Shown: positions 32,074 to 52,021, counted from the first letter of the stretch. The stretch: DNA of 64,000 bases from an uncultured delta proteobacterium (GCA_963768765.1 CAVYJK010000020.1:257441-321440); one strand, 5' to 3'. Notes: generated by a model from the letters alone, not told the origin. Numbers and translations are program-made.

Positions 32074-32095
32074 ATGGCTAACTGCCTAATAGTAC

Positions 32096-34499: not shown

Positions 34500-34737
34500 C
34501 CAAGGCTGGGGGCTGAGCCGGGATCCGAGGAAAACTATCTGAAATTATCGATCATCGAGGAGCATCTTCATGAGCATCGGATCGATTCCAAGCTGGCAGG
34601 CGAGGATTTGAAGTAAATAAGCCAAACGCAATCATCTTTGCATTAGGCCAATTAAGACTTCCTCCTTATGAGATTTGGACTGATGGGATTCGGAGCCAAA
34701 TCGTAAATTCGCAGTGCGAAAAGTAAGGAAAAATAAG

Positions 34738-35385: not shown

Positions 35386-35731
35386 GCTCCTTAATGCGCA
35401 ATCGAGAGGATCTGGAAGTGTTTCACTATCCAAATATTACCTACAACTTTTCCGGGTTTGGGGATAAGTGTCTGGTTTGGCAAGTTAACAAAGCTCTTAA
35501 CTTGGGAAGAAGGCCTGATCTGCACATCAGAATTTTTTTAAACTGAATCTAAGAGAAAAATCTTGACAATTTCAGAGAATCTATGGGATTTAAATCCAAA
35601 TATCATCTTTACTCTAAATTTCCAGCAGTCTAAGTGTAGCATTCTCTGCCATTTTCTCGGAGGAAGCTATGCCTTATCAAGTAGGCCCTCAGCATACCCA
35701 TACCATGTACTCCTCGAAAAAGGAGCATTTT

Positions 35732-37231
35732 ATGCGGAGACCAACACTCGGCCTCTTGCTGTTCGTCCTTATCTGCGCCGGCTGCTCTTATATCATGCCC
35801 CCCCAAAAAATCCCCCTGGACCGGCGAAATTATATTGATGCCGTTTCCACTTCCTGGAAGGAACAGCTCCTCACTAATCTGGTTAAACTGCGTTACGGGG
35901 ACACCCTGACCTTCCTGGAAATGACCTCCGTCAATACCAGCTATGCTCTGGAGGCCAATTTTTCGGCTAATTATACCACCCCGTGGCATTTCCTCTATGG
36001 AACTACCGGGGCTCGCAATACGTTTGTGGGCGGCGGCGGTCTTACTTACTCAGACAAACCCACGATCTCCTACGCTCCCATCCGGGGCGAGGCGTTATCT
36101 AAGACCCTGATCATGCCCATAGACCCGTCCAAAATTTTAAAGGGTCTCCAGACCGGCTGGCGGGCGGATTACGTCTTCCCCTGCTGCGTCAAAAACATCA
36201 ATGATCTTCAAAATCGCCAGGACGCTGATTTTTTTATCCTCGTGCAGCTCTTCCGCGATCTCAGGCAGAATGGCGTCATTCGGATCACCATCGACGAAGA
36301 GAAGAAACCGACCAAATATGATGTTACGGTGCATCTGCAGGATAAAATCCGGCAGGAGCAAGGGAGGAGCGAGCCGGGAGAGAAAGCGGGCGGCAAGGCG
36401 GGGATGAAACCCCAAAAGGCGAAGCAGACTGAGGCGGAGGCGGACAAACAAAAAGAGGCGGAGGACACGATTGGTTTATTGGTGTTGGATAAGGGTCGCG
36501 CTCAGCGCGCCAAATCGGAAGACAAAGTCAAGGAATTCAAGAGACTCTTGTGGCCCGACGCCTCGCCCCAGGGAAAAGGCTTGTACAGCAATTGCAGTGA
36601 ATGTCATGGCGAAAAGGGGGACGGCAAAGGTCCCATGGCCTCCACCTATGATCCCAAGCCCGCTAATTTCCACGATCACCAGTTCTGGATGAGCGACGTT
36701 GACCAGAAGATCGACCAGGCCATTACCTCCGGCCACGGCCGGATGGCCAAGCGTAACCTGAAACCCGAGGAGAAAAAGGCAGTCATCTCTTACCTCAAAC
36801 AAGCCTTTGGGAGGTATGAGGTATATAAAATCATCGATGGCAACCAACAGCCCCGGCCATCAGACCCCTACTGTGACAAAATTATCCTGCAAACCCGCTC
36901 AATTTTACAGGTCTTCACGATGCTCGCCGATTTCATCGCAGTGCCCCAGGAACACCTTTCCGAAAACAGGGTCCAAGAAAGTGATTTGCCGAGTAAAGGA
37001 AAAGAACCTTTGAATGGGCCGGTCGACAACAAGATTATGTTCAAAATTGAATCCAGCAAAGAATGTCCCCAAGACACCTTTGTCGCCATGCAGCAGCGCG
37101 GCTATTGGTTCTATATTAATGATAAAGACTTTGATTCTAAAGAAGTTTTTTCCGGCATAGCAGGAATCTTATCCATGTCGGAGCCTGGCACCAAAGAAGG
37201 AACGCCGGTGCTCACCTTGCCGGTGCAATGA
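35732..37231 (+). CDS. Lipoprotein with an internal class I cytochrome c domain
   Basis: Lipobox LLFVLICAGCS after the ATG at 35732 (SD AAGGAG at 35719-35724). K/E-rich linker. Haem motif CSECHGEKGDGKGPMA with a distal GRM Met. The flanking domains are uncharacterised. Confidence 0.65.
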   Translation: MRRPTLGLLLFVLICAGCSYIMPPQKIPLDRRNYIDAVSTSWKEQLLTNLVKLRYGDTLTFLEMTSVNTSYALEANFSANYTTPWHFLYGTTGARNTFVGGGGLTYSDKPTISYAPIRGEALSKTLIMPIDPSKILKGLQTGWRADYVFPCCVKNINDLQNRQDADFFILVQLFRDLRQNGVIRITIDEEKKPTKYDVTVHLQDKIRQEQGRSEPGEKAGGKAGMKPQKAKQTEAEADKQKEAEDTIGLLVLDKGRAQRAKSEDKVKEFKRLLWPDASPQGKGLYSNCSECHGEKGDGKGPMASTYDPKPANFHDHQFWMSDVDQKIDQAITSGHGRMAKRNLKPEEKKAVISYLKQAFGRYEVYKIIDGNQQPRPSDPYCDKIILQTRSILQVFTMLADFIAVPQEHLSENRVQESDLPSKGKEPLNGPVDNKIMFKIESSKECPQDTFVAMQQRGYWFYINDKDFDSKEVFSGIAGILSMSEPGTKEGTPVLTLPVQ

Positions 37232-37324
37232 GCCAACGGAGAACTACTGGTGAGCAATCTTGGCAGGTGGATGCCGTAAAAGGGGTAGGGCTCCGGGTGG
37301 TGAGGAAGTGGAGGGGAATTTCTC

Positions 37325-38257
37325 ATGCAAGAGCTTTTAGGGCGCTGGCTGGTTGACCCCACCTTCGACAAACTCCTCCTGATCCTGGGGGTGTTGTTGT
37401 TGGTACGCCTGGCGGTGTACCTCCTGAACCGTTACCTGGCCCGGGATATCCAGGACCCCCAAACCCGCTACCGCGTCCACAAGTTTCTCTCCCTGGCGGG
37501 CTATGCCGCCGTCATTCTCTTCCTGGCCATCCTCTTTAGAGACGTCCTCTCCGGGCTGGTGGTGGGCCTGGGGGTGGCCGGGGCCGGGGCAGCCTTCATT
37601 TTCCAGGAGGTCCTGGTCAACTGCGCCGGCTGGCTGGCCATTTCTTTCAGCCGGCTCTATGCCCCCGGTGACCGCATCCAGGTGGGCGCCATCCGGGGCG
37701 ACGTCATCGACATCAGCGTCCTGCGCACCACCCTCATGGAGTGCGGCGTCTGGGTGGAGGCCGATCTCTTCACCGGCCGCATCGTTCGCATCCCCAACAG
37801 CACCATCTTTAAGGAGCCGGTGATCAACTACTCCGCCGACTTTCCCTTCCTCTGGGATGAGATCACCGTGCCCGTGAAACACGGCGACGACCACCAGCTG
37901 GCCCGCCGGATACTGGAAGACGTGATCAATGAGATCGTCGGCGATTACGTCGGCCACGCCAAAAAGGCCTGGAAAGATGCGGTCAAGAAATACTTCATCG
38001 ACGCCTCCTTGATCGACTCGGCGGTGACTATGGTCTTCACCGACAACTGGATCGAATTCAAGGTGCGCTATATTGTGGATTACAAGAAACGCCGCAGCAT
38101 CAAGGACCGCATCTTTTCCCGCATCCTGGAGGAGTTCGCCAAGACCCAGGGCCGCGTCACCATCGCCTCGGGCACCTTCCAACTGGTAGACCCACCTGTC
38201 TTCCAGGTCCAGGTTTCCTCATCTTCTCCGCCAGGGCAAAAAGGCTCAAATCTGTGA
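37325..38257 (+). CDS. MscS-family mechanosensitive channel
   Basis: Three N-terminal TM helices, then PGDRIQVGAIRGDVIDISVLRTTLME...RIVRIPNSTIFKEPVINYS (MscS beta-domain signature). Confidence 0.8.
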   Translation: MQELLGRWLVDPTFDKLLLILGVLLLVRLAVYLLNRYLARDIQDPQTRYRVHKFLSLAGYAAVILFLAILFRDVLSGLVVGLGVAGAGAAFIFQEVLVNCAGWLAISFSRLYAPGDRIQVGAIRGDVIDISVLRTTLMECGVWVEADLFTGRIVRIPNSTIFKEPVINYSADFPFLWDEITVPVKHGDDHQLARRILEDVINEIVGDYVGHAKKAWKDAVKKYFIDASLIDSAVTMVFTDNWIEFKVRYIVDYKKRRSIKDRIFSRILEEFAKTQGRVTIASGTFQLVDPPVFQVQVSSSSPPGQKGSNL

Positions 38258-38340
38258 ACGTTGTCCTCTTCTTGTGGCCAGGAAAGGCCGAGATGCTTTA
38301 GGGGATAGGGCGGAAAATTGCCTAAGAAGTAGCTTTCAAC

Positions 38341-38374
38341 AAATCAGTCAGTGGACCGCGCCGCTGATTTTTTC
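38341..38374 (+). terminator. Candidate intrinsic terminator after the MscS gene
   Basis: AAATCAG (38341-38347) pairs with CTGATTT (38364-38370) and is followed by a T-run. The loop is large, so the prediction is moderate. Confidence 0.4.
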
Positions 38375-38434
38375 ATTCTTAGAGTGCGAGATTACTGCCT
38401 CTATCAACGCTCAAAACTCCAATTAAGAATAGCG

Positions 38435-38576
38435 GATATGGTTATCATAGCTGTATCTCAGACCCTGCCAGGAGTTTGTTAACCTTCTCCGTGTTCGCCT
38501 TCACTTCCAGAACTGCCACCAGCGCTTCGGCGGCTGTCTCAGAATCTCAAATATCTTATTGGCCGCCCGGGTATTG
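38435..38576. repeat. Direct repeat copy A (142 bp) bounding the island
   Basis: Aligns base-for-base with 48460-48601. There are 137/142 identities, and the inner 64 bp are identical. Confidence 0.9.
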
Positions 38577-38798
38577 CCTGCCTCCAGGTCGGCAAAGGTC
38601 TGTTGCGGGTCTTTGTGGCCGAGCATTTGTCACCGCCCTACGAGAACGCCGATGTACCTCGGAGGCCTGTTTAAACCGCATGGTTGTCGTGGGTTAGAGG
38701 ACAGAAAGGTTAAGAAAATGGCGTCATGAGAAAGAGATTCCCGCGAATAGTCCCGCGAATTATCCATCACTCCGTGATGGTGATGCTGTCAGTTCATG

Positions 38799-39575
38799 TT
38801 AGGCAGCATTGGCTCCTGTTACTGTCCGCACTTTGCCGATGTAAAGAGGTATGTGCCCAGGGATATAATCGTTGCCGGGAACGCAAACTGGGCCGTGTAG
38901 GCGCTGCCCAAGGGGAGCAGTCAAAGGCGCAAGCAAGCTAAGGAAGTTTTGGAGATCACGCTCGTTTGCGTCGATCTGCCTTGTCCTGGTGTTTGGTGTC
39001 ACGAATTCGTGGACTACGAAGAGGGCGTGCGAAGCGTCGACTTGACCCGCATAAGCGAGGGCAGCTGCGATGCCGTAGAACAACTGGTAGCGAAGCTCGC
39101 CAATTCCGGGCAAGTCGCCGGGCTGGTTGCCTAGAAGAGCTTGGCAAAGCCTTTCCAACCGCTCGGGCCGTCGCGACGGCGGTGGTGTCCTGAGTACATT
39201 GGCGACCAGCTCGCCGAAAGGCTCGTCGGCCTTTGCCTCGATGCTAATAGCGATGCGTTGATTGGCCCGTTCAGCGATGCATACCAAGTCGGTGTTCCGT
39301 GGCTCTCCTGGGATGTTGTCGAATGCGACCTTGTGCTCCGGGATGGCTTCGAGGAATGCGGCGCCGTCGATATCGGGATGGGTGCTTAGCAATTCCTGTA
39401 ACTCAACAGGCACGGCGGGGGCAGAGGCTCTGCCGCACCAGGCCTTAGCAAGCTCCTTAGCACTCTTGCCATCGACCCAGTGCCTGGCACCGCCTGCCGG
39501 AGGGGCAAGGCGAAACCAGTCATCGACCGTCGAGATATCTTTGATGATGCGCACTGAAAAACCTCCCATATCCAA
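38799..39575 (-). CDS. Hypothetical protein with a PD-(D/E)xK-like nuclease motif
   Basis: 258-aa ORF. NTDLVCIAERANQRIAISIEAKADEPFG gives a D...E-A-K arrangement. The N-terminus reads HWVDGKSAKELAKAW. It is the last gene of the minus-strand module. Confidence 0.5.
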   Translation of the reverse strand: MDMGGFSVRIIKDISTVDDWFRLAPPAGGARHWVDGKSAKELAKAWCGRASAPAVPVELQELLSTHPDIDGAAFLEAIPEHKVAFDNIPGEPRNTDLVCIAERANQRIAISIEAKADEPFGELVANVLRTPPPSRRPERLERLCQALLGNQPGDLPGIGELRYQLFYGIAAALAYAGQVDASHALFVVHEFVTPNTRTRQIDANERDLQNFLSLLAPLTAPLGQRLHGPVCVPGNDYIPGHIPLYIGKVRTVTGANAA

Positions 39576-39660
39576 AGCATAGCAAAAAATTTTCAGAAAA
39601 TCCGGTAAGTGTTCATTTTGGCAAGGAGATAGTCGCCAACGAGATCTGACGATCTATGAC

Positions 39661-42600
39661 TTAATCCTGGCTGCACTGAGCCGTTAGGTCACTGCGGTCT
39701 TTGGATGGCGGTAAATACCTTCGCGTGATGCCGGCGCCCGCTCTCAATAGCGAAGCCTCTTCTTGATCTTCGCTTCGGAATCCTGCCACGCCGGCTTCGC
39801 GCTCGTAGGACGCGGCGATGCCCTCGAGGACTCCCCCGACATAGGGATAGTCGAAGTGCAAGCGCTCGGCCCAGGCGCGGTATTTCGCGGCGAGCTCGCG
39901 CTCCTGTTCGCCCCCTTCGCCCCGCCAGTGAACGCCGCGAGAGTTACGAACGCCGATATGGAATCCCTCGCCGATTTCAGGGGATGCTATCCCTTCCATC
40001 GCCTCGCACACCGCTTCGCAGGGCCATATGCCGTTCTCGCCCTCGGGCGCCTTGGCGAGCAGTTGACCGAGGCAGTGATCACCAATGTCGGCGCGGGCGT
40101 ACTCGCGGCATAGGCGCCGAACCTCGGCAAGCCACGCGGCGAGCGCCGCCGCGTCGATTCTTCCGTTTTCGTCCGTGCCGGGAATCTTCTTTATCTGGTC
40201 GAGAAGGCGATAGGCTGCCGACGCGACTGCCGCCCGCTGCTCGGGATTCTCGATCCTCCATTCCGGCGGATCCTCTCCTTCGTCACTCCGCTTGTAGGCG
40301 AGCGCCACCGCCTGGACGAATAGCGCCGGCGATTGCGCGATCTGGCTTTCGAGATTCGGGATTCCGTGCTTGCTGTCATTCGAGGGCGTCGATGAAGAGG
40401 AATTCGAGCTGGGCCATTTCATCACGGGTGACGCCCGTGCGGCCATCAAGCGAATCCAGTGCCTCGGAAATGTAGTAGCGGTCGAGCTTGAAATGGCCTG
40501 CTGGTTCGGCATTGACCGTGGCGACGTCGCGCAGCAGCCGCTTGAGGCGGGACGTCTCGATGTCCTTGAAATCCATGTGGACGGCGTGGAAAGCCGCGCG
40601 CGGCCGCCGGGCCTCCAGAAGGCGGTCGATCAGTTCGGTAAGCTCGGCGGGCGTGTGCCGGCCCCAGGACGGGAACACGTCCTTCCAGTACCCGGCGCGG
40701 ATGTCCTCGCCATAACCGTCCAGAAGACGCCAAGTGGATGCCTGGAACGGTGCGCATACAAATAGCCGCGTACAGCTCTTCGGCAGGCAGCCCTTCGGCC
40801 GCAGCCTGCAACACCTCGGCGCGCGAGTCTTCCTCGATCGCCCAAAGGAAGCCCTGCAGGCACCACTCGGCCTTGCTCCGGAGGTCTCCGTCAAGGGAAA
40901 GGCAGCGCCGGATGAAATCGACCCGCGGCTTAACGCCGGTAACGCACGACGCCATGTAATGGCCGACGGTGCCGGCGGCGCCGCTGCCGGTAAGCAATTC
41001 CTTAACACCCTCGAAACCGCGCTCGGTCCATATCTCGGTCATCGCTTCGCGGCGCAGCCTGTCGATCCGCTCGTCGCGCTTCTGATAGTCGAAATCCTCC
41101 TCTTCGATCTCGTCAGCCGATTCCTGCACCCACTGATCGGCGAATAGCCAGCCGTGCCGGATGACCGGATCATGGGGCCGGAGGCTGTCATAGGCTTCGC
41201 GGGCACGGTCGCGGGTCGCTTCCCCAAGCTTCCGGTGGCGGCCGCGTCGGGTGAAGGCGAACCGCCGGATGCGCTCGCGCAGCGCGGCCTTGGCGGCCTC
41301 GCCGGCTTTCCGGGACCATTCATTGATCAGGTCCCAGACCTTGGTCTGGTCTTCGTCGGGCATACCCTGGAGAGACTCGACGAGATCGCCAAGGGTCTTT
41401 TCGTCGTGGGATGGCCAAGCGATCAGGAAATCCAGAGCCTTTCGGTTGAAGTCGTACATCTCTTTGTGCGTGACGACCTGCCCGGCCCCGGAGGCGTCGC
41501 TGCGCCAGCGGGGCCTGTAGCTGTAGTGGCCGATCCGGGAACCCGGTTTGATCTGCTCGATGCAAATCTCCCAGCCGACATCCGGGAAACGCTTGATGAG
41601 CATCTCCAGCGCCTTGACCCTCTGCTCCACCGAGGCCGCCGTCTGCGGCATCCATGACCTGAAGATGGCCTGAAGGCTGGCGTCCGGTTTGTTCATCCAG
41701 TTGTCGTCGATCTTCGGCCGGGAGAGCTGGGCGAGGATCGCCGATACGCGCGGGAGGTTTTGCGGTTTCCAGGCAAGGCACTCCAGCGCCCAGAGAAGGC
41801 CCGTCCGCGACGGCGATGCCCCGAACGAGCCGCTGTCGACCGGCTTGAGAAGGCCAAAGACGACGGGGCTCGTTGCGCCGCAGGTCCTCTTCGATGATCT
41901 TCAGGAATTCATCGGGCGCGGCTTCTGCGTAGCGCGGCAGATCGTGGTCGTGGGAGAGCAGCTTTTCAAGCGTCAGCGGCGTTAGGAGTTTGCGGATCAG
42001 AACTGCGACCCGGCTTTCGACATCGATGCCGAGGCGGCTCTGGAACAGGTTGTTGCCGTGGACCGACAGGATGACGAGTGTCTCGCAGATACCCTCGCGC
42101 AACGCGCCGGAGTGATCGCGTTTCTTGCCGTACAAGGCCGCGGCCCACCTGTTCTCTTCCGGCAGTTCGAGCGCCGGGTCGGACTCGGAAAGGACGTATT
42201 CGGCGGCGACGAAGAACCGGTCGAGGTCCGCCGGCGTGACCATCCTCGCAATCGCAAACAAGGCGTCGATCTTCGAGGCGACACCCCGGTAACGTCCGGC
42301 AGACCACACCGGGCTGTCATCGAACCGAAGCAGGCGCGCGACGTCGTCTTCGATCGCCTCGTACTTTCGATCCGCCACATAGGAGACGATCTCGCGATCC
42401 GCCTCCGGCTCGGCATGCCAGGCGCCGATCAGGGCCATCGGCACGAGGGTCTTTGCCGTTTTGTCATCGCCGGCCCATGCCGGCGTCCTGATCGCTGGCA
42501 TTCTGCGAGAGGCGGCGGCGCAGGATCGTCGGCGAACGGCCCGACTCCCTTGCAAGCCGGTCGACGTCGCCTTTCTCGATTCCCATGGCGATGAGCGCCT

Positions 42601-43820
42601 TCTCGAAGGCGTCGTAGCCGAGCAGGTCGAGCGCTATGTCGGCTTCCGTATCGACCGCGTTGCGGGGACGGAAAACGATGCAATGAAGCCGACGATGGGC
42701 GTCGACGAGTTCGCGCTCGGCGTCTTCGGAATGGACAATCGGGATGAAAGGCACGGAGGACGCAAGAAGCGTCCTGAGCGTCGCCGGAGATGTGAAGACC
42801 GCGGCGAGGTCTTTGAATTGGCGGAGTTCTTCGTCATCGAACAGGCAGGCGAGAAAGGCGAGCGCCTCGTCCCGCGAGTCGGCCGCGACGACGAAGGGCC
42901 TGTCGCTCGGTTTGTCGAGCCACGCCTTGAACGTGCTCCGGTATGCGGCGATCGAGGGTGCGAAGATTTCGGGCGTCAGATGGGGCTCGCTGGCGTTCGC
43001 CCAGCGGCGCCATGCCTGCTCCAGCGTTTCATAGCCGCTGACCGGCAGGGCGAGTTGTTCGGCAAGCCAGATCTGCGCCGGCACCGACTGCTCCAGCCAC
43101 TGCTCAAGATCGCTCGCATCGAAAGCCCTGACGGCCTTCCAGTCGCCGGCCTCGTTCTTCCGTTTCTCCCAGGCGGTCTTGCCGGGCCAGTTGCGAGGTG
43201 TCACGAAGACGAAGGTGCTGTTTGCCCGCTCGGCGGCATCAACCGATTTCAGCCGCGCGGTATAATCGTTCTCGGCTTTGGCACCCGGCTTCTGGTCGGT
43301 GCCGAACTCCCAATAGGAGTTTCCCCTCGGGAATCCAGGGTGTGGCGGCGCCCGCTTCGACGAAACCATCGGAGCCCTTGCGCTGCGCGTTGTCGTAGCC
43401 GGGGAAGTCGACTTGGCGGAGGTCGTTGCCGGTCGAGTGCACCAGCTTCCGCAGAAAGACGGGAAGGTGGGTGCGGGCGTCGATTTGGCTGTCGGCCCAG
43501 TCCTCGATCTGCCTTGCCTTGATAGTCAGGAAATTCGGGACGAAGGCGCGAACTACAACCTGCTTTTCACCGGCGCGGCGCTCCTGCTGGTCGTAGGCGG
43601 CCTGCATATCGAGCAGCCGCTTCCGGTCGGCGCCGAACGCCTTCTCCAGCCTGACCGCCATTTCAGGAGACAGGGCGGATTTTCCGTTAAGGAAGTTCGA
43701 CAGGGCCGGCCTGCCGATGCCGAGCCGCTTGGCGGCGTCCTTCACGGACATGCCAACCGGGATGATGCTCTCGCGGACGTAGATGCCGGGATGGGTGGAC
43801 CTTTTGTACGACGTCGTCAT
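39661..43820 (-). CDS. XRE/HigA-type HTH fused to a ~1385-aa protein (REase-like N-domain plus long helical region); 5 apparent frame breaks
   Basis: Five tracked ORFs (43239-43820, 42464-43369, 41320-42555, 40446-41696/40376-41008, 39661-40512) join into one reading. The junctions are WIPEG/NSYWEFG (~43.32 kb), RRRLSQ/PAIRTPAW (~42.50) and RRNEP/VVFGLLKP (GGGG at 41865-41868). The last two are LYAAI/APFQASTW (~40.76) and FIDALE/DSKHGIPNLE (~40.38). The N-terminus MSVKDAAKRLGIGRPALSNFLNGKSALSPEMAVRLEKAFG is a HigA-like HTH. Confidence 0.65.
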
Positions 43821-43838
43821 TGATACTGCCCTCCAGTA

Positions 43839-43872
43839 AAAATGTATCGTGTTGCGTCACACGATACATTTT
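43839..43872. promoter_or_regulatory. Perfect 14-bp inverted repeat (candidate operator) in the divergent control region
   Basis: AAAATGTATCGTGT (43839-43852), spacer TGCGTC, ACACGATACATTTT (43859-43872). It lies 19 nt upstream of the HTH gene start codon, just 5' of its GGAGGG Shine-Dalgarno. Confidence 0.6.
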
Positions 43873-44102
43873 CCAGTCCGTCATGTCAAGGAGCCAAACA
43901 ATAATATTTCGCGAGCAGAAATAAACCCTGACCGGAAGCAGATAACTGCCCTGATCAGAAACTTATCACATCGCCAAAAACCTTCCATAACCAGACCATA
44001 GCTTGCATTTCTCCGGGTAAGGTGACAATTGTCGATCATGGAGATAGTAGCTATCTGTTTTCCAAGCAAGAAATTTTCTGTTGCGACAAAACCTGTGCTA
44101 AC

Positions 44103-45368
44103 ATGGCTTCCAGCGAGCAGGAAGACATGATGGACGCCGTTAACAGTTCGGAGCAATTCGTCTACGAGGTCTGTGAGAATTCTTTCCTTTCGCTGTGGAG
44201 CTACGTCAACCCTCAGGAGCGCAACCCAGGAAAGGAACTCTGCGATATCCTTGTAGTCTGCGATCCTCATGTCATTGTCGTGAGTGTCAAGGATATCGAG
44301 CTGAAGGATTCCGGCAACCTAAAGGTTGAGTGGGACCGTTGGAAACGCAAAGCAGTTAATGCGTCGAAGAAACAGATTGTAGGAGCAATTCGCTGGCTGG
44401 ATGGGGCTCGTGTCGTTGTGGCCAAGGATGGAACACAGGGGTTACCACTACCGCCCACGGAACGGAGGGTCTACCACCGGATAGCGGTTGCCTTTGGCGG
44501 ACGCCGAGAGATCCCCATTTCTAGTTCCGGTACGAAGGATGAGGCGTTTGTACATGTGCTTGACGAGCGAGCCTTCTATCTGCTGCTCCGATATCTCGAC
44601 ACTATCAGCGACTTCGTCCAATACTTGGCCGATAAGGAGGAGTTCTTTAACCGAGTTGCGATCATCATGGAGGGCGGAGAAGAGGACCTGTTAGCTCTTT
44701 ACATGCACAGCGGACGGCAGTTCCCTCAGGGATTAGATATGGTCATTCTTCAAGATGATCTCTGGCAAGGCTTCAATGCCAGGTCCGAGTTCCTTGCTAA
44801 ACTGGACAGGGATCGCGACAGCTATGTTTGGGACCGGCTGATTGAGTCATTCTGCGTCGGGGGGTTTAGAGGAGATACCTGGCAAGGCCCAGGGATGGCC
44901 GAATCGGAGCAGGCCTTGCGGGTTCTCGCGCGTGAGGATCGCTTTTGCAGGCGCGTTCTTGGACGGGCGTTCAGGGAATTCCTTGAACAGAGCAAGGCTC
45001 GCATGACCCGTTCCCGTTGCCTGCAGTCGTTGAGCGGGGTTGTTTATGTGTTCTTGACCTACGATTCGGACAGCAGTCCAGAGGAACGAAAACGTGAGCT
45101 ACTCGTTCGGTGCGTCGCGTCACTGTGTCTCTTTCCTAAGGCATCCACAATCATGGGCATCGACATCAATGTCCCTGGGGAGTTGCCGCGTGGCGGGTAT
45201 ACGAGCGATCTCGTGATGTTGCATTCAGACGAGGGCGAATGGCCTGAGGAGTACGTTGAGAAGGCTCGTTTATTCAGGGATGAACTAGGGTACTTTCGGG
45301 ACCCGAACGAAACCAGATTCCATGAAGACGAGTACCCCGAGAGGAATGGAGAAGACGAATCCCAATAA
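44103..45368 (+). CDS. NERD/PD-(D/E)xK-like N-terminal domain protein with an uncharacterised C-terminal region
   Basis: SEQFVYEVCENSFLSLWSYVNPQERNPGKELCDILVVCDPHVIVVSVKDIELKD resembles the NERD core, but has S-V-K where E-x-K is usual. The likely start is the ATG at 44103. An acidic tail ends the protein. Confidence 0.5.
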   Translation: MASSEQEDMMDAVNSSEQFVYEVCENSFLSLWSYVNPQERNPGKELCDILVVCDPHVIVVSVKDIELKDSGNLKVEWDRWKRKAVNASKKQIVGAIRWLDGARVVVAKDGTQGLPLPPTERRVYHRIAVAFGGRREIPISSSGTKDEAFVHVLDERAFYLLLRYLDTISDFVQYLADKEEFFNRVAIIMEGGEEDLLALYMHSGRQFPQGLDMVILQDDLWQGFNARSEFLAKLDRDRDSYVWDRLIESFCVGGFRGDTWQGPGMAESEQALRVLAREDRFCRRVLGRAFREFLEQSKARMTRSRCLQSLSGVVYVFLTYDSDSSPEERKRELLVRCVASLCLFPKASTIMGIDINVPGELPRGGYTSDLVMLHSDEGEWPEEYVEKARLFRDELGYFRDPNETRFHEDEYPERNGEDESQ

Positions 45369-45637
45369 GGCCGATCTCAGAAACTTATCTCTGAAAACTT
45401 CCCTTACCAGATCATATCTGGCATTTTTCCCCCTCAAGCGATAATTGTCGACTCTGGCAAGGTAATGAAACCCGAAGGCTTATATGTAAGCAGGGTTGCC
45501 TCCTTGACAAACTGGTCTTCATTGTGCCAATGTGAATTATTGAAAGGGTTGAAAGAGCTTAGATGTTAAAAGCTACCGATCTTCGGGAGATTTACAGGCC
45601 GCAAGTTAAGCATAGACTTTTCCAATAAAATAAGGGG

Positions 45638-47920
45638 ATGGGTATGCTGAGGAAGGTCATCTCGATAAGGAAGGTAGGCCGCTTCCTGAGATATTCCGCT
45701 ACCGGAGACGTTGAGTTTAAGCGCTATAACCTAGTGTTTGCCGAGAACGGGCGGGGCAAGACAACCCTCTGCGCAATTCTCCGTTCCCTCCAGGCCGGGG
45801 ACACCGCTCATGTAATTGGCCGCACTACGCTTGGAAGTCCGGGCGCGCCGGAGATTAGGATTCTCCTTGATGACGGACCTGCAGTCCTCAGCGCAGGGGC
45901 ATGGAGCACCACAGTCCCAAACCTTGCTATCTTCGATTCAACATTTGTTTCTGAGAACATTTACTCTGGCGATGTGGTTGACCTCAGCCATAAACGCAGT
46001 CTCTACGGGGTTATCGTGGGAGCGCATGGCGTGGCCCTTGCGCGCCAGATCGAAGGATACGACGCTGCAAGTCGGGAAAAGAGTACCGAGATAAGAGAAA
46101 AACGTGCGGAGGTTCAGGCCCTGGTGCCGCAAGGTTTGGCCGTCGAGGCGTTCCTGCCCCTCCAGGAAGACTGGGCTATAGATGCTAAGATCGCCGAGAA
46201 GGTAAAGGAGCTCAAAGCCGTACAGCAGGCAGAGGAGATTAGGACTCGCCCCGCCCTTTCAGAGCTGAACTTACCAAGATTTTGGATTTCATGCGAAAAA
46301 TTGCTCGGCAAGAGCATCGAAGGCATTGCGAAGGATGCAGAACGCCGCATAAACATCCAGATTGAAGAGCACGCCATGCATGAGCGTGGCGAGCCTTGGT
46401 TGTTCGAAGGCTTGGGCTACATACGTAACAATGAGTGCCCTTTTTGCGGCCAATCTATCAATGGTGTTGCCCTGATTGGTGCTTATAGAGACTATTTCAG
46501 TGAAGCTTACGACGCCTTGCGGGCTGAGATTACGACGATGCACCAGCAAATCGCCGATGCCTTTGGCGATCGGGTGATTGCGTCGATTGATAGAATTATA
46601 GACCAGAATAAAGCGGGCGTCGAATTTTGGTCAAGGTTTTGCACAATCACACCTCCCGTTTTGGACGTCGAAGTGTCGGGGACCTTGTTCAACCTCCGGA
46701 ATGCCGCATTACCTCTCCTCGAACGCAAGGCCGCTACGCCGCTTGAGCACGTGTCTGTAGATGCATCATTCACCGGCGCTCTTGATGCTTTTATGTCGGC
46801 ACGCAGAAGTGCTGAAACTTACAACCAGGCCGTGCGGGCGGCAAATGGCGTTATTGCTCAAAAGAAGGCTGCCACCGGTACCGTTGACATCAGAGTCGTT
46901 CAGAGCGCCCTCACCCTCCTTCAGGCGATAAAGAAGCGACACGAGCCAGAGGGCAAGGAAGCGTGTAAAAAATACATGGACGCGATTACAGAAAAAAAGA
47001 CCATCGAAGACAAGAAGACGAGGGTCAAAGTGAGGTTGGACGAGCACACGCGTGAGGTAATCGGCCACTATGAGAACACCATCAATGATCTACTCGAAGA
47101 CTTCCACGCAGGATTCCGGATTACTGGAACCGATCATGGTTATCCTGGAGGCGTTGCCAGCACTAGCTATCAAATCCTCATCAATGAAACGCCCGTAGAA
47201 TTAGGTGACCCCAACAGTCCCCTCACTATCCCGAGCTTCAAGAACACACTCAGCTCTGGCGACAAGAGCACGCTTGCACTTGCTTTCTTCCTATCTCAAA
47301 TAGAGCACGACCCTGCGAAGGCCAGCAAGATTGTCATTTTCGACGATCCGTTCAGTAGCCAAGATAGCTTTCGAAAGGATTGTACTGTTCAAAAGATCAA
47401 GAAATGTGGTGATGAATGTCACCAGGTCATCGTATTGTCACACGATCAGAGCTTCCTTAAGCGCATATGGGACCGTCTCGCCATACAAGCCGGAGACCGA
47501 AAATGTCTTCAACTAATGCGTGTCGGTTTACGCGACACGAAAATCTGTGAATGGGACATTGAGGAGGCGACGCAGTCTCCTTTCGCTGCAGACCGGAAAT
47601 CGCTGGCCGCCTACTACATTAGGGGCGAAGGTTCTCCCAGAGATATAGTGGTCAAGATCAGGCCAGTTTTAGAGACTTACTGTAGGAACCTCTATCCGGG
47701 CGATTTCGGTGAAGATGCTCTTGGCACTATTATCGGAAAGATTCGGGCCAACGGCCCCGTCCACCAGCTCTTTCCTTTGTTAGAAAAAGTGGAAGCACTT
47801 AACGAGTATGCGCGTCGTTACCACCACGGAGAGAATCCAAACGCCGCCACAGAACCTATTGACGAAACCGAACTTCATGGTTTCGTGAAAAAGACCTTAT
47901 CCATTATTGGATGTTGCTAA
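45638..47920 (+). CDS. AAA_13-type ABC/Rad50-like ATPase with a CxxC hook and an RloC/PrrC-like C-terminal tail
   Basis: Walker A FAENGRGKTT. Helical insert with ECPFCGQ (C267/C270, DNA ~46436-46447). Signature LSSGDKSTLALAFFL, Walker B KIVIFDDPFSSQD, and VIVLSHD. The C-terminal ~150 aa carry KIRPVLETY (R-x3-E), with His at PVHQ and RRYHHGEN. Confidence 0.7.
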   Translation: MGMLRKVISIRKVGRFLRYSATGDVEFKRYNLVFAENGRGKTTLCAILRSLQAGDTAHVIGRTTLGSPGAPEIRILLDDGPAVLSAGAWSTTVPNLAIFDSTFVSENIYSGDVVDLSHKRSLYGVIVGAHGVALARQIEGYDAASREKSTEIREKRAEVQALVPQGLAVEAFLPLQEDWAIDAKIAEKVKELKAVQQAEEIRTRPALSELNLPRFWISCEKLLGKSIEGIAKDAERRINIQIEEHAMHERGEPWLFEGLGYIRNNECPFCGQSINGVALIGAYRDYFSEAYDALRAEITTMHQQIADAFGDRVIASIDRIIDQNKAGVEFWSRFCTITPPVLDVEVSGTLFNLRNAALPLLERKAATPLEHVSVDASFTGALDAFMSARRSAETYNQAVRAANGVIAQKKAATGTVDIRVVQSALTLLQAIKKRHEPEGKEACKKYMDAITEKKTIEDKKTRVKVRLDEHTREVIGHYENTINDLLEDFHAGFRITGTDHGYPGGVASTSYQILINETPVELGDPNSPLTIPSFKNTLSSGDKSTLALAFFLSQIEHDPAKASKIVIFDDPFSSQDSFRKDCTVQKIKKCGDECHQVIVLSHDQSFLKRIWDRLAIQAGDRKCLQLMRVGLRDTKICEWDIEEATQSPFAADRKSLAAYYIRGEGSPRDIVVKIRPVLETYCRNLYPGDFGEDALGTIIGKIRANGPVHQLFPLLEKVEALNEYARRYHHGENPNAATEPIDETELHGFVKKTLSIIGCC

Positions 47921-47945
47921 GGGGCCGAATGACGAAATCGGCCCC
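47921..47945 (+). terminator. GC-rich hairpin directly after the ATPase stop (weak terminator/attenuator candidate)
   Basis: GGGGCCGA (47921-47928), 9-nt loop, TCGGCCCC (47938-47945), then CCTTGGTTT. The U-tract is poor, and the next gene starts 42 nt downstream of the hairpin. Confidence 0.4.
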
Positions 47946-47986
47946 CCTTGGTTTAAGCCAAATTTGTCCAGAAGAAAGGAAGAACA

Positions 47987-48361
47987 ATGAAATTATTTAA
48001 TCCGTCATCAGAACACCCTGCAAGGGCAATACAGGCTTGGCAGATTCTCGTAGGTCTGGCAATGGACCGAAAGACAATCACCTATTTGGCATTGTCTCGC
48101 CTCATGTATCACACGGATGCAGCAGGTGTCCTGCCCCAAATTTTAGGGCACATTGCGTTCTACTGCATAGACAACGAGCTGCCACCACTCACTTCGATTG
48201 TTGTTGGAAAGGGGAGAGGAACACCTGGAGCCGAAATTCCTGTCGATCTCTCGCAGATAGACGCCCAACGAGAGGCAGTTTATGAATTCGATTGGTACAA
48301 TGTTTACCCCCCGTCTGAGAATGAGTTGAAATCAGCATTTGACCGCCATCTTGAAAGGTAA
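47987..48361 (+). CDS. Small (124-aa) hypothetical protein, third gene of the plus-strand module
   Basis: RKTITYLALSRLMYHTDAAGVLPQILGHIAFYCIDNELPPLTSIVVGKGRGTPG recalls the wHTH of MGMT/alkyltransferase-like DNA-binding domains (T-Y-G-x-L-A...L-P...V-V). Tentative. Confidence 0.45.
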   Translation: MKLFNPSSEHPARAIQAWQILVGLAMDRKTITYLALSRLMYHTDAAGVLPQILGHIAFYCIDNELPPLTSIVVGKGRGTPGAEIPVDLSQIDAQREAVYEFDWYNVYPPSENELKSAFDRHLER

Positions 48362-48459
48362 AGACACCTTGAACGCTTTCAGGAACAATCAGGCCGCTAA
48401 CTGCGGTAAAAAGATAGCTGCTATTTATGCGCGACCGGCTACTCGGCAGGTAGCGTGTT

Positions 48460-48601
48460 GATATGGTTATCATATCTGTATCTCAAACCCTGCCAGGAGT
48501 TTGTTAGCCTTCTACGTGTTCGCCTTCACTTCCAGAGCTGCCACCAGCGCTTCGGCGGCTGTCTCAGAATCTCAAATATCTTATTGGCCGCCCGGGTATT
48601 G
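48460..48601. repeat. Direct repeat copy B (142 bp), overlapping the 3' end of the o-spanin gene
   Basis: 137/142 identical to 38435-38576. It covers the last 24 codons plus stop of ORF 48526-48870 and 66 nt downstream. Confidence 0.9.
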
Positions 48602-48870
48602 GCCGCGCCCAGCTCCGCCGACTCTCGCAAATCCACCTTATAGGTAGCCTCTTTAAAAGCGCTCTCGGTAGGGAAGAAGAGGCCCGCCGGCTGCCCCGTC
48701 TTAGAATCAATGAGCTTCTTCGTATTCAGGGCCGGTTCCGCCGGCATCTTTATATCGGGCAGGGGCTTTAGCGCCTCCTTGGGGATTTGCGGGCAGGGCG
48801 TGGCGCACCCCGCCAGGAGAATTAAAGTCATCAGCAAGACCATCCAGGTCATTTTTCTGCTGTAATTCAT
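48526..48870 (-). CDS. o-spanin (Rz1-like outer-membrane lipoprotein), overlapped architecture
   Basis: Lipobox LILLAGC, a Pro-rich mature region (TPCPQIPKEALKPLPDIKMPAEP), and a start inside the i-spanin gene in another frame. Confidence 0.65.
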   Translation of the reverse strand: MNYSRKMTWMVLLMTLILLAGCATPCPQIPKEALKPLPDIKMPAEPALNTKKLIDSKTGQPAGLFFPTESAFKEATYKVDLRESAELGAANTRAANKIFEILRQPPKRWWQLWK

Positions 48871-49111
48871 TGAGTTTACCCCGCTTCTTAGTGGCCTTGG
48901 CCTTTATTTCTTCCCGTTCCTGGTAGAGGAGAACCTGCTGCTGGGAGATTGCGGCCGCGGTCTGAGCCGTGGCTAATTGGGCCTGGGCCTTCAACTTGGC
49001 CTCATGTTCCCATTTCAGCACCCCCAGGATCGCCAAGACCGCCAGGCCCCCCATGATCCAGCCCCCCAGCCGGGAGGATAAAACAGACCAGATTATTGAC
49101 AGAATGGGCAT
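48707..49111 (-). CDS. i-spanin (Rz-like)
   Basis: N-terminal TM LGGWIMGGLAVLAILGVL, then a coiled-coil (EAKLKAQAQLATAQTAAAISQQQVLLYQEREEIKAKA). Its position is after the endolysin genes. Confidence 0.65.
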   Translation of the reverse strand: MPILSIIWSVLSSRLGGWIMGGLAVLAILGVLKWEHEAKLKAQAQLATAQTAAAISQQQVLLYQEREEIKAKATKKRGKLNELQQKNDLDGLADDFNSPGGVRHALPANPQGGAKAPARYKDAGGTGPEYEEAH

Positions 49112-49115
49112 ATGG

Positions 49116-49424
49116 CTAATTTACCTCCATCTTTGCGGCCTTTTCCGGGGAAGGAGGCACCACCTTCCCCTCAACACTGGCGATGGTTTGGCTGAAGGTA
49201 GTCTTTGAGAACATCGAGGCCCCCAGGCCCCCGGTAGCCGCACCCAGCATCCCCAGGAGCAGGTTCACCGTGGGGCCGTCAAGTCCCTTTTTCAAGATAA
49301 AAACATGAAAGATAATAGAGGCTGAGGCAATGGCCACCACCGGGGCGGCGAGAACTACGGCGAGAACCGCCATGGAATTGACGATCTGATTGCTGCCACT
49401 AACAAATTCCCGCCAGAAGTTCAT
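49116..49424 (-). CDS. Small two-TM membrane protein (holin/antiholin candidate)
   Basis: 102 aa with two hydrophobic helices (MAVLAVVLAAPVVAIASASIIF; LLLGMLGAATGGLGASMF). It lies between the amidase and the spanins, with a 4-nt overlap with the amidase. Confidence 0.5.
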   Translation of the reverse strand: MNFWREFVSGSNQIVNSMAVLAVVLAAPVVAIASASIIFHVFILKKGLDGPTVNLLLGMLGAATGGLGASMFSKTTFSQTIASVEGKVVPPSPEKAAKMEVN

Positions 49425-49951
49425 GCCGCATACCCCTTAACCAGTTGGATAAACCCGACCTTGTCCACATTGTTACCCGGGCAATGATGGGTCGTCCGGG
49501 GGTCTTCCCGGTGCAACCTCATGGTGTCGGGATCGATGCCCAGGACGGCGCTCAGGATGGCTATAGCGGCAACGGCGTTGTCCCGCACCATCGCACCCCG
49601 CCCTAGGTCGAAATCCTCCGTGTCATAGTCGCCCAACATTTCAACGCCCAAGGCTAGGCTATTCCACGATGGCGAGTGGACGCCCGGGACGGTGAGGGGG
49701 GTGAACACCCAGATTTGCAGATCGTCAATGAACAGGTGGGGCCCCCCGGACCAGCCCTGGTCGTCCCGATAGTAGGATTGCAATCCCAGGATATGCTGGT
49801 AGATAAGGCCATTCGGCCTATTAGCCAGGTTGGGCTCCCCGGTGTTGTGCAGGACAATAAAGCCCGGTTGCCAGGCATCCCAAATCAAGCTCTTGACATA
49901 CTCCTTAAAGGTTTCAGGAATGAAGTTCTGTCCTACAATACCTTTCCACAT
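49421..49951 (-). CDS. N-acetylmuramoyl-L-alanine amidase (Amidase_2/PGRP-type endolysin)
   Basis: FIVLHNTGEP...GWSGGPHLFIDD...HHCPGNNVD zinc-amidase motifs. Confidence 0.8.
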   Translation of the reverse strand: MWKGIVGQNFIPETFKEYVKSLIWDAWQPGFIVLHNTGEPNLANRPNGLIYQHILGLQSYYRDDQGWSGGPHLFIDDLQIWVFTPLTVPGVHSPSWNSLALGVEMLGDYDTEDFDLGRGAMVRDNAVAAIAILSAVLGIDPDTMRLHREDPRTTHHCPGNNVDKVGFIQLVKGYAA

Positions 49952-49961
49952 CGAACACCTC

Positions 49962-50504
49962 CTATGCCAAGGCCTGCGCCAGGGTCAGGGCCCGGGCTCG
50001 AACATCGCTCGAATAATCCCTTCCTGTCGTCCGGGCATCCGGGTCCTGCCCGGCGGCCACCGCCTTGGAGACATTGCCGGCGCCACAGTTATAGGCCGCC
50101 ACCGTCCCCCAGAAAAGCCGGGTATAGTCTTCGCCGAAAAAGCCGAAACGGTCTGCCAGGTAATTGTAAGATGGTAGGATCACGTTCTTCCGCACATACT
50201 CCAGCGAGGCGGCCAAGTCCTGCCATTGCCCCGAGTCGCAAAAAGCCCCGTGGCTCCGGTCATCAATTTGTATCTCGCCGTGACCATGCCCGGCATCCCC
50301 CAGGCCGTCCTCATCCAGGAGCAATCCGAAGCGACTCTCCCGGCTGTCAATGGCCATGAGAACCCAAACCATCCACCGAGGCCCCAGTTCGGCCTGGAGG
50401 GCCTGTTCCAACTCCGGGGGCCACTGGTAGGCGTCCGCCGCCGCCTGAAAGATGGGCAGGCGTTCTTTGGCCAGTCCAAATTCGCCTTCTTTAAAGAGGG
50501 ACAT
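49962..50504 (-). CDS. Lytic transglycosylase (SLT-domain muralytic enzyme)
   Basis: MAIDSRESRFG (catalytic E-S) and VAAYNCGAGNV motifs. Confidence 0.8.
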   Translation of the reverse strand: MSLFKEGEFGLAKERLPIFQAAADAYQWPPELEQALQAELGPRWMVWVLMAIDSRESRFGLLLDEDGLGDAGHGHGEIQIDDRSHGAFCDSGQWQDLAASLEYVRKNVILPSYNYLADRFGFFGEDYTRLFWGTVAAYNCGAGNVSKAVAAGQDPDARTTGRDYSSDVRARALTLAQALA

Positions 50505-50926
50505 TAGGACTTTCCTCCACGATGTCCTTGTTGATAATTGGTCTCCACGGTTAGCTTCGCCATGGCAATCTTGATCTCGCCAACGCCTCCTTCAATAACC
50601 TCCAGTTTCTTAAAAAACTTGTCTTTGAACTGGTGAAATTCGCCGTCCAGTTTCGCGATCTTGGCTTTGTTTTCCTCAGACCGCTCGTACTCGGCTTGAT
50701 GAGCCGTGCAATTTTTGGGATCAATAAGGCAAGGAGCAATACCGCTGGGGGCTTCGCCTTTCCCACCTGCTCCGACAATGACGTTGACTTCACCTTTGCC
50801 CAATATTTTCTTTAATAGCGGCCACGCCAAGGCCCCCAGGCCTTTGCCGGCGCCCAAGGCAACAATGACCACAAAAAGCACGCCGATAATGCCCCATAGT
50901 TCCCGGTTAGAGCAGAGTTCCGTCAT
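50504..50926 (-). CDS. Single-TM protein with a coiled-coil tail (holin or lysis-regulator candidate)
   Basis: The likely start is MTELCSNRELWGIIGVLFVVIVALGAG at 50926. The rest is a charged helical C-terminus. It lies immediately upstream of the muralytic genes. Confidence 0.45.
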   Translation of the reverse strand: MTELCSNRELWGIIGVLFVVIVALGAGKGLGALAWPLLKKILGKGEVNVIVGAGGKGEAPSGIAPCLIDPKNCTAHQAEYERSEENKAKIAKLDGEFHQFKDKFFKKLEVIEGGVGEIKIAMAKLTVETNYQQGHRGGKS

Positions 50927-51008
50927 TTCGCCACCTCCACGCCGATAACACCCCCGACCATGGCCTGAAACAGGGGCTCCTGCCAAAATTCCATCATGAC
51001 ATCTCCTG

Positions 51009-52021
51009 TTATTGGACCACCGGAAACTTGCGCCGTCCGGCCTGACTCTGCCAGGCGGTGCGGGCGTCAGGGACCGGGAACTTCCGCCGAAGGTCAAGGG
51101 GCGGGATCTCCTGGTACTCCACCTGGACGATGAACTGCTTCACGTACAGTCCCGGGTCGAACTGCCGGTATTCCACCTGGCCGATAATCTGGGGGACCTT
51201 GATAAGCGGTGGAATCTCTGATATTCCGCCTGGCCGATGACCTGGGAAACCTCGATAAGCGGCGGAGCTTCCCATTCCGCCTGGGCTACTGCCTGGAAAA
51301 CCTTTAGCTTTGCGGGAAGAGGGAAAACACCATTTCTGATCGCATCAATTTCTGTATCCGGAAGGATGTCATTGAAAATCACCATCTCGTCCAATTTGCC
51401 GTCCAGGTAATTGCCTGGATTGGCCAAGGCACCGATGGTAGTGTCTGCTGCTCCCACACGAAGCTGGTTGGAGGGAGTATTGGAGTAATTCGCCACTGTA
51501 CCAGCAGTCGCATCATGGAGCCTGACCTGGCGAACCCTATTTACACCGTCAATAACCACTGCCAGGTGGTACCAGCGTCCAGCCTGGACAGTGCAAGCAT
51601 CCCAGAACTCACCACCGGAGGCGCTGTAGCCCCAGTTGACTCTCAAATACCCGCCAGTAAAGCCGATCTCGATAGTAAGGTCTGTCTGCCAAAGCCACTT
51701 GCTGTAAATATTGGCCCATTGGGAGGCACCCGGTACTGTTTCCAACTTAAACCAACAGCATAAAGTAAATTTTTTAGTTGCATCGCCGGACTTAAGCGGA
51801 TAGCCCGCATCAAGATTACCATCAGCGATAGGAAAATATTGACTGGAGATCAGCTTCAAAATCACGCAGGCCGCTCCTTCTCGGTAATCACCAGTGTCAG
51901 CGGTAGGCGAATTGGCAGAGGCGTGAGGGTATTGACCACCCTTGGAATCTGCGGTTAAAGCACCGCTCTCGAAGCGCCAGAGGGCCTTGCACCGAGGATC
52001 GGTGGAAAAATCGTTGGCCAT
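51009..52021 (-). CDS. LamG/concanavalin-like tail fibre protein with a C-terminal 17-aa tandem-repeat region; frame break inside the repeats (~51.21 kb)
   Basis: CKALWRFESG...LDGKLDEMVIFNDIL is typical of Laminin_G_3 phage proteins. The C-terminus continues from ORF 51140-52021 into ORF 51009-51275 through repeats PPLIEVSQVIGQAEYQ / PPLIKVPQIIGQVEYRQ. Confidence 0.65.
51117..51325. repeat. Coding tandem repeat, about 4 units of 54/53/51/~50 bp
   Basis: Unit starts are at 51117 (ACTCCACCTGG), 51171 (ATTCCACCTGG), 51224 (ATTCCGCCTGG) and 51275 (ATTCCGCCTGG). The 53-bp unit coincides with the reading-frame switch. Confidence 0.8.

Follow-up and report, generated by a model that had tools for sequence, protein, structure and literature searches.

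Introduction

The P2/P4 elements of Escherichia coli have a fixed slot beside a conserved phage gene, at which one anti-phage system is exchanged for another (PMC9122126; PMC13586616). Here we describe a locus of comparable design in a stretch of 64,000 nucleotides from an uncultured delta proteobacterium (GCA_963768765.1, CAVYJK010000020.1:257441-321440), referred to as the window and numbered from its first letter, in which about 10 kb of DNA separates the o-spanin gene of a resident prophage from a second copy of the 3' end of this gene. As in the P2/P4-type hotspots, unrelated cargo occupies a fixed position between conserved flanks in close relatives, and the cargo includes a Lamassu system in one relative (L026) and a PDC-S06 candidate in the window. 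The locus differs from these hotspots in its lineage, which consists of uncultivated phages in Desulfobacterota-type metagenome-assembled genomes (MAGs) known from sequence alone, in the location of the slot, which follows immediately upon the spanin where the late operon ends, and in the nature of the inner flank, which is itself an accessory module composed of a giant HigA-like gene and a DUF6946 gene.

Cis-mobilisable elements (CIMEs), described in the ICESt1/ICESt3 family, are bounded by attachment (att) sites and carry no integrase. The locus resembles CIMEs and tandem prophage remnants in that recombinase-free DNA is enclosed by direct repeats that stem from the ends of related elements, with tRNA/tmRNA-like 3' fragments and an integrase remnant nearby. 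In contrast to such elements, what is repeated here is the tail of a phage gene plus the adjoining 3' flank and not a demonstrated att core. Intact relatives also have the DNA between the repeats as a phage arm, and this DNA is not inherited as one block.

The first-pass annotation of this DNA had taken the 10 kb for an inserted island with attL/attR-type scars or, alternatively, for a recombination hot spot at which related phages trade defence cargo. In the reading that we favour, to which we give an even chance, the 10 kb are the accessory right arm of the resident prophage, and the second copy of the spanin tail is a relic of the right end of another, related phage.

Results

Relatives share the flanks and differ in the cargo

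The segment that follows the o-spanin gene is composed of the following features, given in the direction of phage transcription:

44042-48388, plus strand: variable cargo slot with three plus-strand open reading frames (ORFs), all converging on the spanin
47987-48361, plus strand: slot ORF 3, 124 aa
45638-47920, plus strand: slot ORF 2, a 760-aa AAA_13 ATPase matching the PADLOC candidate PDC-S06 (E = 6e-59)
44022-45368, plus strand: slot ORF 1, 448 aa, phrog_18195
43821-44041, minus strand: giant gene upstream region, which L002 and L026 also have and which borders the slot on its inner side
39687-43820, minus strand: giant HigA-like gene, broken into five ORFs in the window and intact (1356 aa) in L002 and L026
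38799-39575, minus strand: DUF6946 gene, the conserved partner of the giant gene in phage-linked loci
38577-38764, minus strand: X, a 188-bp conserved stretch after the DUF6946 gene, the first 137 nt of which are shared with L026

A species-level genome scan and a metagenome scan yielded 15 loci with the spanin or its tail (tail-only alignment), two further spanin loci were reached through protein homologues, and a 90%-identical homologue of the giant protein of L002 led to contigs of five samples (L026-L030). Two blocks of the window recur in these relatives, namely 48457-50938 (93%) and 38628-43994 (91%) in L026-L030, and 48457-48974 (95%) and 39387-44041 (93%) in L002, and their similar divergence fits co-inheritance of the arm and the lysis cassette. 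The part replaced in L002 and L026 is confined to 44.0-48.4 kb (about 4.4 kb), with 38.6-44.0 kb kept. Its flanks, which are the spanin with the end motif behind it on one side and the giant gene upstream region on the other, are 91-95% conserved in L002 and L026-L030, the inner flank starting about 175-220 nt upstream of the giant gene.

The cargos of the window, L002 and L026 show no nucleotide similarity among the three. The slot of L026 holds a Lamassu system, with LmuA, LmuC and LmuB (E = 1e-26, 2e-24 and 5e-106, respectively), and a 301-aa ORF, while that of L002 (5.3 kb) holds eight small ORFs on the opposite strand, with no defence-system match. Because three related prophages carry three unrelated cargos between the same flanks, we regard 44.0-48.4 kb as a cargo-swapping slot in a conserved arm. 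For the window cargo, the PDC-S06 match makes a defence role a candidate function. The proposed hot spot for swapped defence cargo is thus upheld by the three cargos of related prophages, but its borders are not the repeats, since the slot reaches from the end motif to the giant gene upstream region. Similarly, the whole 10 kb had been described as cargo, whereas variation is found in the inner 4.4 kb, and the giant gene, the DUF6946 gene and X are conserved parts of the arm. The GC content is 0.51 in the plus-strand block of the slot, 0.64 in the giant gene and 0.58-0.59 in the phage late genes; a 129-aa ORF between the giant gene and the plus-strand block gave no domain match.

The order spanin, slot, giant gene, DUF6946 gene and X recurs in independent assemblies of five samples and in L002, and the junction between X and the spanin tail recurs in three other assemblies, both of which speak against a chimeric join in the MAG; the two tail copies of the window differ at 5 positions, so they are no collapsed duplicate. 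Six +1 insertions in the giant gene do hint at an imperfect consensus, and the relatives stem from MAGs and metagenomes themselves, but we consider an assembly artefact extremely improbable. Beyond these relatives, megablast of window 38300-52000 against 50,697 INPHARED phage records gave no match, and IMG/VR scans with the o-spanin, a 24-mer of its tail and a 29-mer of X found nothing.

At both slot borders of L002 (551-563 and 5888-5900) stands the short sequence GGGCAG-N-TA-N-CTG, which also occurs at 43939-43951 in the window and at 9870-9882 in L026; the spanin-side border keeps it just partly in both of these. This border sequence is possibly the trace of insertion into one ancestral intergenic sequence.

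Two copies of the spanin tail

The repeats at the two ends of the segment, together with the end motifs that continue them outward, comprise four features:

48460-48601, minus strand: repeat copy B, the last 24 codons and stop codon of the intact o-spanin gene and 66 nt of 3' flank
48389-48459, minus strand: end motif of copy B, with the palindrome GATATG-ATAAC-CATATC, an AT-rich stretch and a diverged GGTGCGGATAGAGGGCAG; spanin-side border of the slot
38435-38576, minus strand: repeat copy A, the spanin tail and 66 nt, with the spanin body absent upstream; read as a relic
38361-38434, minus strand: end motif of copy A, a degenerate extension abutting the mscS terminator-like hairpin (38346-38369)

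The existence of 142-bp imperfect direct repeats was confirmed: 137 of the 142 bases are identical in an ungapped alignment, and the inner 64 bp match perfectly. In a repeat search, copies A and B emerged as the single long direct repeat of the window (159 nt, 93%, spacing 10,025 bp). The composition of copy B also agreed with the first-pass annotation when checked against the o-spanin ORF (48526-48870, minus strand), and copy A codes for ...NTRAANKIFEILRQPPKRWWQFWK* within a 41-codon ORF (38501-38626, minus strand), with the same 24 residues as copy B except for the replacement of L by F. The 142-bp match therefore stands, but its outer end is not the limit of the repeat, as a six-copy profile matches 48389-48624 and 38361-38598 and a degenerate likeness goes about 70 nt beyond the end noted earlier. 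This extension, an AT-rich stretch with the motif GGTGCGGATAGAGGGCAG, is kept by both window copies, with copy B more diverged. The palindrome of the unit is a 6-bp inverted repeat with a 5-nt spacer. A terminator was sought in the repeat and none was found in copy B, where a weak sigma-70-like match (CTGGCA-16-TATGAT) is present.

If the unit were an att site, the 10 kb would be an integrase-less integrative or cis-mobilisable element inserted site-specifically into the o-spanin 3' end, with the repeats as attL and attR. The repeats indeed bracket the unit exactly, and its layout is that of a circle (X, tail, end motif, cargo, giant gene, DUF6946 gene) crossed into the spanin tail. Against this, the earlier statement that no intact recombinase lies inside proved correct, as integrase, transposase and resolvase domains were found in none of the ORFs between the repeats (the prophage's own integrase lies beyond the window), and the variable part is the inner 4.4 kb, so that the unit is not present or absent as one block.

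The identity of the two copies decays gradually at the inner edge, and the 3'-terminal ~55 coding nucleotides of the spanin (48526-48601 and 38501-38576) are nearly invariant at the nucleotide level in 12 copies, the surroundings of which differ by 3-7%. The gradual decay and the perfect 64-bp core are as expected for homologous exchange or gene conversion, and together with the near-invariant tail they would suit Campbell-type RecA integration of circular DNA of a related phage via the spanin tail, which would make copy A and the arm an internal duplication of the phage genome. Such exchange would also be in keeping with the mosaic state of the o-spanin, which alone is shared in L001 and L016, where the upstream lysis genes differ and breakpoints lie on both sides of it. 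Whatever their origin, the repeats with their perfect core should be good RecA substrates for deletion or exchange; a crossover between the two would remove the arm, and what stayed behind would be an arm-less end, as in L001 and L003, with an intact hybrid spanin (F in place of L).

X fused to the spanin tail is found without the arm, and the arm without a second repeat

Four loci with X or the fusion of X to the spanin tail allow copy A to be placed in context:

L026, after X: tRNA-like core ACGGGTTCGATTCCCGTTGGGACTACCA, with a degenerate counterpart in the window
L004, relic: upstream of X, 420 nt and then DsrE and FMN reductase genes; after the tail, the 3' flank, the end motif and an MFS transporter gene
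L022, relic: upstream of X as in L004 (80 nt readable); likeness ends with the stop codon, beyond which stand an intact tRNA-Thr and part of an integrase
L023, relic: contig begins in the last ~45 nt of X; tail joined to window position 33909 at a 13-nt identity

The sequence upstream of copy A had been called dead, a description that does not hold for X, since it is 92-98% conserved in L004, L022, L023 and L026. In the window, the last ~50 nt of X are a degenerate counterpart of the tRNA-like fragment of L026 (about 65% similar, with a 9-nt gap, in an alignment read by eye), and this fragment is followed by about 12 nt of flank-like sequence and then by copy A. The fusion of X, the degenerate fragment and the spanin tail is found with the same junction in L004 (94%), L022 (98%) and L023 (98%), all of which are without the arm. 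In place of the DUF6946 gene that precedes X in the window and L026, another sequence is common to L004 and L022. Since copy A and X exist without the arm, a duplication that accompanied the arrival of the 10 kb in this genome is less likely.

L026 has the arm and matches the end profile in one copy only, without a second spanin copy. After X, this contig continues with ACGGG-TTCGATT-CCCGT-TGGGACT-A-CCA (T-arm, 3' acceptor strand and CCA) and then with trmFO, topA and dprA. We infer that this junction is attR-like, in a tRNA-type target; a full tRNA at the fragment was called by neither ARAGORN nor Rfam. The 28-mer of L026 recurs with its 65-nt flank at L004 19206-19316, where it is preceded by sequence about 70% similar to X. 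That X itself might be part of a tmRNA was considered and rejected, with no Rfam match in the window, L004 or L026 and nothing from ARAGORN.

These loci bear on both of the explanations raised above. Against an inserted island bounded by att sites stand the L026 arm, which has one repeat and ends in the tRNA-like fragment, and the relic found without the arm, whereas L004, with a second, partial end copy 2 kb beyond the first, around the MFS gene, likewise shows two end copies enclosing a 2-kb cargo. For the Campbell-type integration, the occurrence of the X and tail composite in several contexts, as if mobile, is a point in favour; the second copy is missing from L026, the composite of L004 has no phage genes in the 9.8 kb upstream of it, and the donor would already have to possess a tRNA-like fragment fused to the spanin tail. 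On balance, we hold the Campbell-type explanation to be unlikely.

Beside the L004 relic, a 379-aa ORF was tried as an integrase and discarded when a domain search showed an MFS transporter. The same contig, from a delta-proteobacterial MAG, contains a group II intron 2 kb from the relic (6073-7878, minus strand; RVT_1 and GIIM maturase ORF, Rfam D1-D4 and D5).

The spanin end as the right end of prophages

In several relatives the spanin end is followed directly by host genes: a cobalamin riboswitch (119 bits) and a TonB-receptor/Btu/ExbB/TonB operon in L003, a thioredoxin-reductase-like gene with GH65 and trehalose-phosphatase genes in L001, genes for an ICMT-like methyltransferase and a histidine kinase in L015/L018, and ArsR-like and MtrA-like genes in L016. 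These neighbours identify the spanin end as the right end of the prophage in those loci. The ORF after the L015 spanin had been a candidate integrase and turned out to encode the ICMT-like methyltransferase. Empty sites, named earlier as a check, thus exist in L001, L003, L015/L018 and L016, where the spanin 3' end is joined to host DNA, but at other host loci and not at the mscS flank.

The position at which homology ends varies between relatives. It lies after the stop codon in L022 and L023, in the palindrome in L015/L018 and L016, and about 70 nt outward in L001-L004, L017 and L026; inside the palindrome, likeness stops after ...CTATG in L015/L018 and after ...CTATGAT in L016. The loss of homology within the 6-bp inverted repeat in these two cases is a point in favour of a site-specific crossover, but the breakpoints as a whole are spread over about 130 nt, with no fixed crossover. 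Taken with the single repeat of the L026 arm and the relic without an arm, these scattered breakpoints leave the attL/attR scars of an inserted 10-kb island unsupported, and we regard an att-bounded element as quite improbable.

Older mobile-element debris beyond copy A

On the far side of copy A, three features mark the flank:

33897-33909, minus strand: 13-nt identity to the tail of copy A, TGGCAGTTCTGGA, also present at 38506-38518
32099-32181, minus strand: tRNA-like sequence, convincing in its 3' half only, which Rfam scores as tRNA-Sec with 34.7 bits, short of the gathering score
31366-32073, plus strand: tyrosine-integrase remnant, N-terminally truncated and with an in-frame stop (31630-31632), the integrase nearest to the segment

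In L023 (1-363), window 33910-38505 is missing, and with it the mscS, cytochrome c, FMN reductase and DsrE genes; after the tail, this contig continues with a stretch labelled Z and a nucleotidyltransferase gene. The L023 join at TGGCAGTTCTGGA is a natural deletion or insertion variant of a flank that had earlier been taken for host DNA, and the joining of its tail at 33909 indicates that rearrangements do use these tails. A third spanin tail at 33.9 kb was considered and is at most possible: the 13-nt identity is accompanied by a vague peptide likeness only, and another frame is equally plausible.

The stretch at 31366-32181 looks like the edge of an older integrated element, and the GC content falls from 0.60 to 0.50 at 31.5 kb. 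No tRNA genes were found in the 64-kb window. A fragment resembling a tRNA/tmRNA 3' end (...GGTTCAAGTC...CCACC) is present at ~33700-33790 (minus strand), at L023 225-298 and at L004 11990-12035, and the three loci diverge there; its Rfam tmRNA score is weak and was obtained in L023 only (14.6 bits, E = 0.069). The integrase remnant, the tRNA-like half, the weak tmRNA-like piece and the GC drop nearby support a history of repeated occupation. In the same region, a gene for a nucleotidyltransferase-domain protein (32839-33483) overlaps a 153-aa ORF (32415-32876), both on the minus strand, in a layout that resembles an MNT/HEPN-type toxin-antitoxin pair.

Repeated occupation might also take the form of serial accretion, with the spanin tail, flank and end motif serving as a recurrent recombination site to which cargo modules are added one after another, each regenerating a copy. 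The two window copies with a possible degenerate third at 33.9 kb, the two L004 copies around the MFS gene, the sequence GGGCAG-N-TA-N-CTG at both slot borders of L002 and several tRNA/tmRNA-like fragments within the same 17 kb would be in line with such a process. The third copy amounts to a 13-nt match, though, the window contains the short motif GGGCAGNTANCTG of the slot borders no more often than chance predicts, no enzyme was identified, and the genes by copy A (mscS, cytochrome c, FMN reductase and DsrE) look like ordinary host genes; we consider serial accretion highly doubtful. It is just as much a long shot that the spanin-end unit and the GGGCAG-YTATCT at both slot borders form a dedicated cargo-capture site for cassette accretion at the phage end, each capture regenerating a copy. 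Among the enzymes that could serve it are the phage integrase, working in trans, and the giant HigA-like protein, which is very widely transferred.

The spanin pair and the lysis cassette

The genes on the phage side of the slot, all on the minus strand, are arranged as follows:

48526-48870, minus strand: o-spanin, with the lipoprotein signal MNYSRKMTWMVLLMTLILLAGC and the lipobox LLAGC
48707-49111, minus strand: i-spanin, with an N-terminal hydrophobic segment, MPILSIIWSVLSSRLGGWIMGGLAVLAILGVL
49116-50504, minus strand: remaining lysis cassette, comprising a 102-aa holin-like membrane protein, an endolysin and an SLT-like protein

The overlapping pair at 48526-49111, with the two genes sharing 48707-48870, is assigned as a two-component spanin on the basis of sequence features and position. 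As in overlapped spanins of the Rz/Rz1 type, the lipoprotein ORF starts inside the ORF of a type-II membrane protein and runs past its end, and the pair is the last element of a cassette that also encodes a small membrane protein and an amidase endolysin. Unlike the Rz/Rz1-type spanins, neither window protein is recognised by curated family hidden Markov models (HMMs), no match having been found among those of Pfam, PHROGs or NCBIfam. The endolysin (49421-49951) belongs to Amidase_2, and the SLT-like protein (49962-50504) scores below the Pfam cutoff. These remaining cassette genes are common to L003, L015, L017, L018 and L026 at 93-98%, and spanin homologues sit last in the lysis cassettes of relatives.

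The giant HigA-like gene and its partners

In the window, the giant gene appears as five overlapping minus-strand ORFs (39661-43820) with colinear matches to one 1258-position profile, phrog_18693, while intact copies are present at L002 6019-10089 and L026 10001-14071. Comparison with three intact homologues located six +1 insertions (43326, 42499, 41869, 40776, 40382 and 39790), all of G or C, and no deletions; they may reflect either gene decay or consensus error in a GC-rich stretch. A TTGACA-like box precedes the giant gene, and between this box and the gene start (~43850-43880, minus strand) lies a perfect 10-bp inverted repeat, TGTATCGTGT-N6-ACACGATACA, which is also kept in L002 and L026 and is probably the operator for the helix-turn-helix (HTH) domain of the giant protein itself.

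The giant protein, annotated as a HigA family antitoxin, has more than 2,800 homologues, nearly all of 1353-1358 aa, and those sampled are 74-91% identical. They span Syntrophobacteraceae, Alphaproteobacteria, Chromatiaceae, Paraburkholderia and Paenibacillus. Nucleotide likeness to the Syntrophobacteraceae loci (88%) is limited to the giant gene itself, and many contigs that carry the gene barely exceed its length. Its neighbours vary (DUF6946, a DACNV-domain gene or none), and its contexts are chromosomal, phage or like those of integrative and conjugative elements. The DUF6946 family is placed by Pfam in the PD-(D/E)xK clan (PMC10584680). In the Syntrophobacteraceae loci L005-L012, a 445-aa DACNV-domain (PF21751) gene replaces DUF6946 after the giant gene, with a PIN/PhdYeFM pair adjoining; no mention of the DACNV domain was found in the literature searched.

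An N-terminal HigA-type HTH is the sole domain recognised in the giant protein, with no other PADLOC or Pfam match. Modelled as two halves with AlphaFold2, the protein is predicted to consist of alpha/beta domains followed by a HEAT/ARM-like solenoid, with a predicted local distance difference test (pLDDT) score of 62 for the N-terminal half and 82 for the C-terminal half. The closest fold match of the N-terminal half was Avs4 (8dgf_B), a weak match (E = 3e-4, template modelling score 0.19, model pLDDT 62), followed by NLRP and AVAST5, and that of the C-terminal half was the PP2A-A subunit. In its predicted architecture, the giant protein would resemble the Avs/STAND antiviral sensors, being long and multidomain: a part that is DNA-binding or effector-like stands at the N terminus, alpha/beta domains come next, and an alpha-solenoid forms the C terminus. 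It differs from them in that the fold match is weak and a canonical Walker A motif (GxxxxGK[ST]) is found in 0 of 120 homologues. After a beta-strand, residues 211-214 of P0014 form a conserved PGKT, and the looser pattern [AG]xxxxGK[ST] fits just 20 of the 120.

Discussion

In the course of events that we favour, a phage genome read in its own direction (the minus strand of the window) would pass from tail genes through the lysis cassette, the o-spanin, the 66-nt flank and the end motif into the cargo slot, and then into a self-contained module made up of the giant gene with its own promoter and operator, the gene of the DUF6946 nuclease family and X. Co-infecting or resident relatives would likely exchange cargo with the conserved flanks as homology. 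Copy A would be the leftover right end (spanin tail, flank and end motif) of an earlier related phage at the locus, brought there perhaps through tandem lysogeny or through an exchange among relatives and then cut down by deletion. The direct repeats would accordingly be a by-product of serial occupancy by related phages and not att sites of the 10 kb.

Several observations weigh against this course of events. The left end and integrase of the prophage lie beyond the 64 kb, and no att core is definable. The 28-mer of L026 is unmatched in the window at up to 3 mismatches, and an attR there is supported by homology only. Four genomes that differ in the DNA downstream have the composite of X, degenerate tRNA end and tail at 94-98% conservation, which would also fit a unit that travels within the phage genome, nearer to an internal duplication. 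The L002 contig, JAGVMV010000034.1, could be read as far as the DUF6946 gene only, up to its last 870 bp, so a second tail copy beyond it is not visible. Finally, phages that end at the end motif occupy different host loci, and no att signature was recognised at those places.

Most likely, the locus represents fairly ordinary, though well-documented, phage mosaicism. It also carries a caution, in that repeats bracketing cargo resemble att scars and are explicable here as remnants of successive related phages. For the phages themselves, the slot beside the spanin means that the organising principle of the E. coli P2/P4 elements is now met in uncultivated phages of sulfate-reducer-type bacteria, and the o-spanin tail and the giant gene upstream region provide anchors for mining further cargo. 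The giant protein, STAND- or solenoid-like in prediction and alike across distant phyla, may outweigh the slot and its repeats in value.

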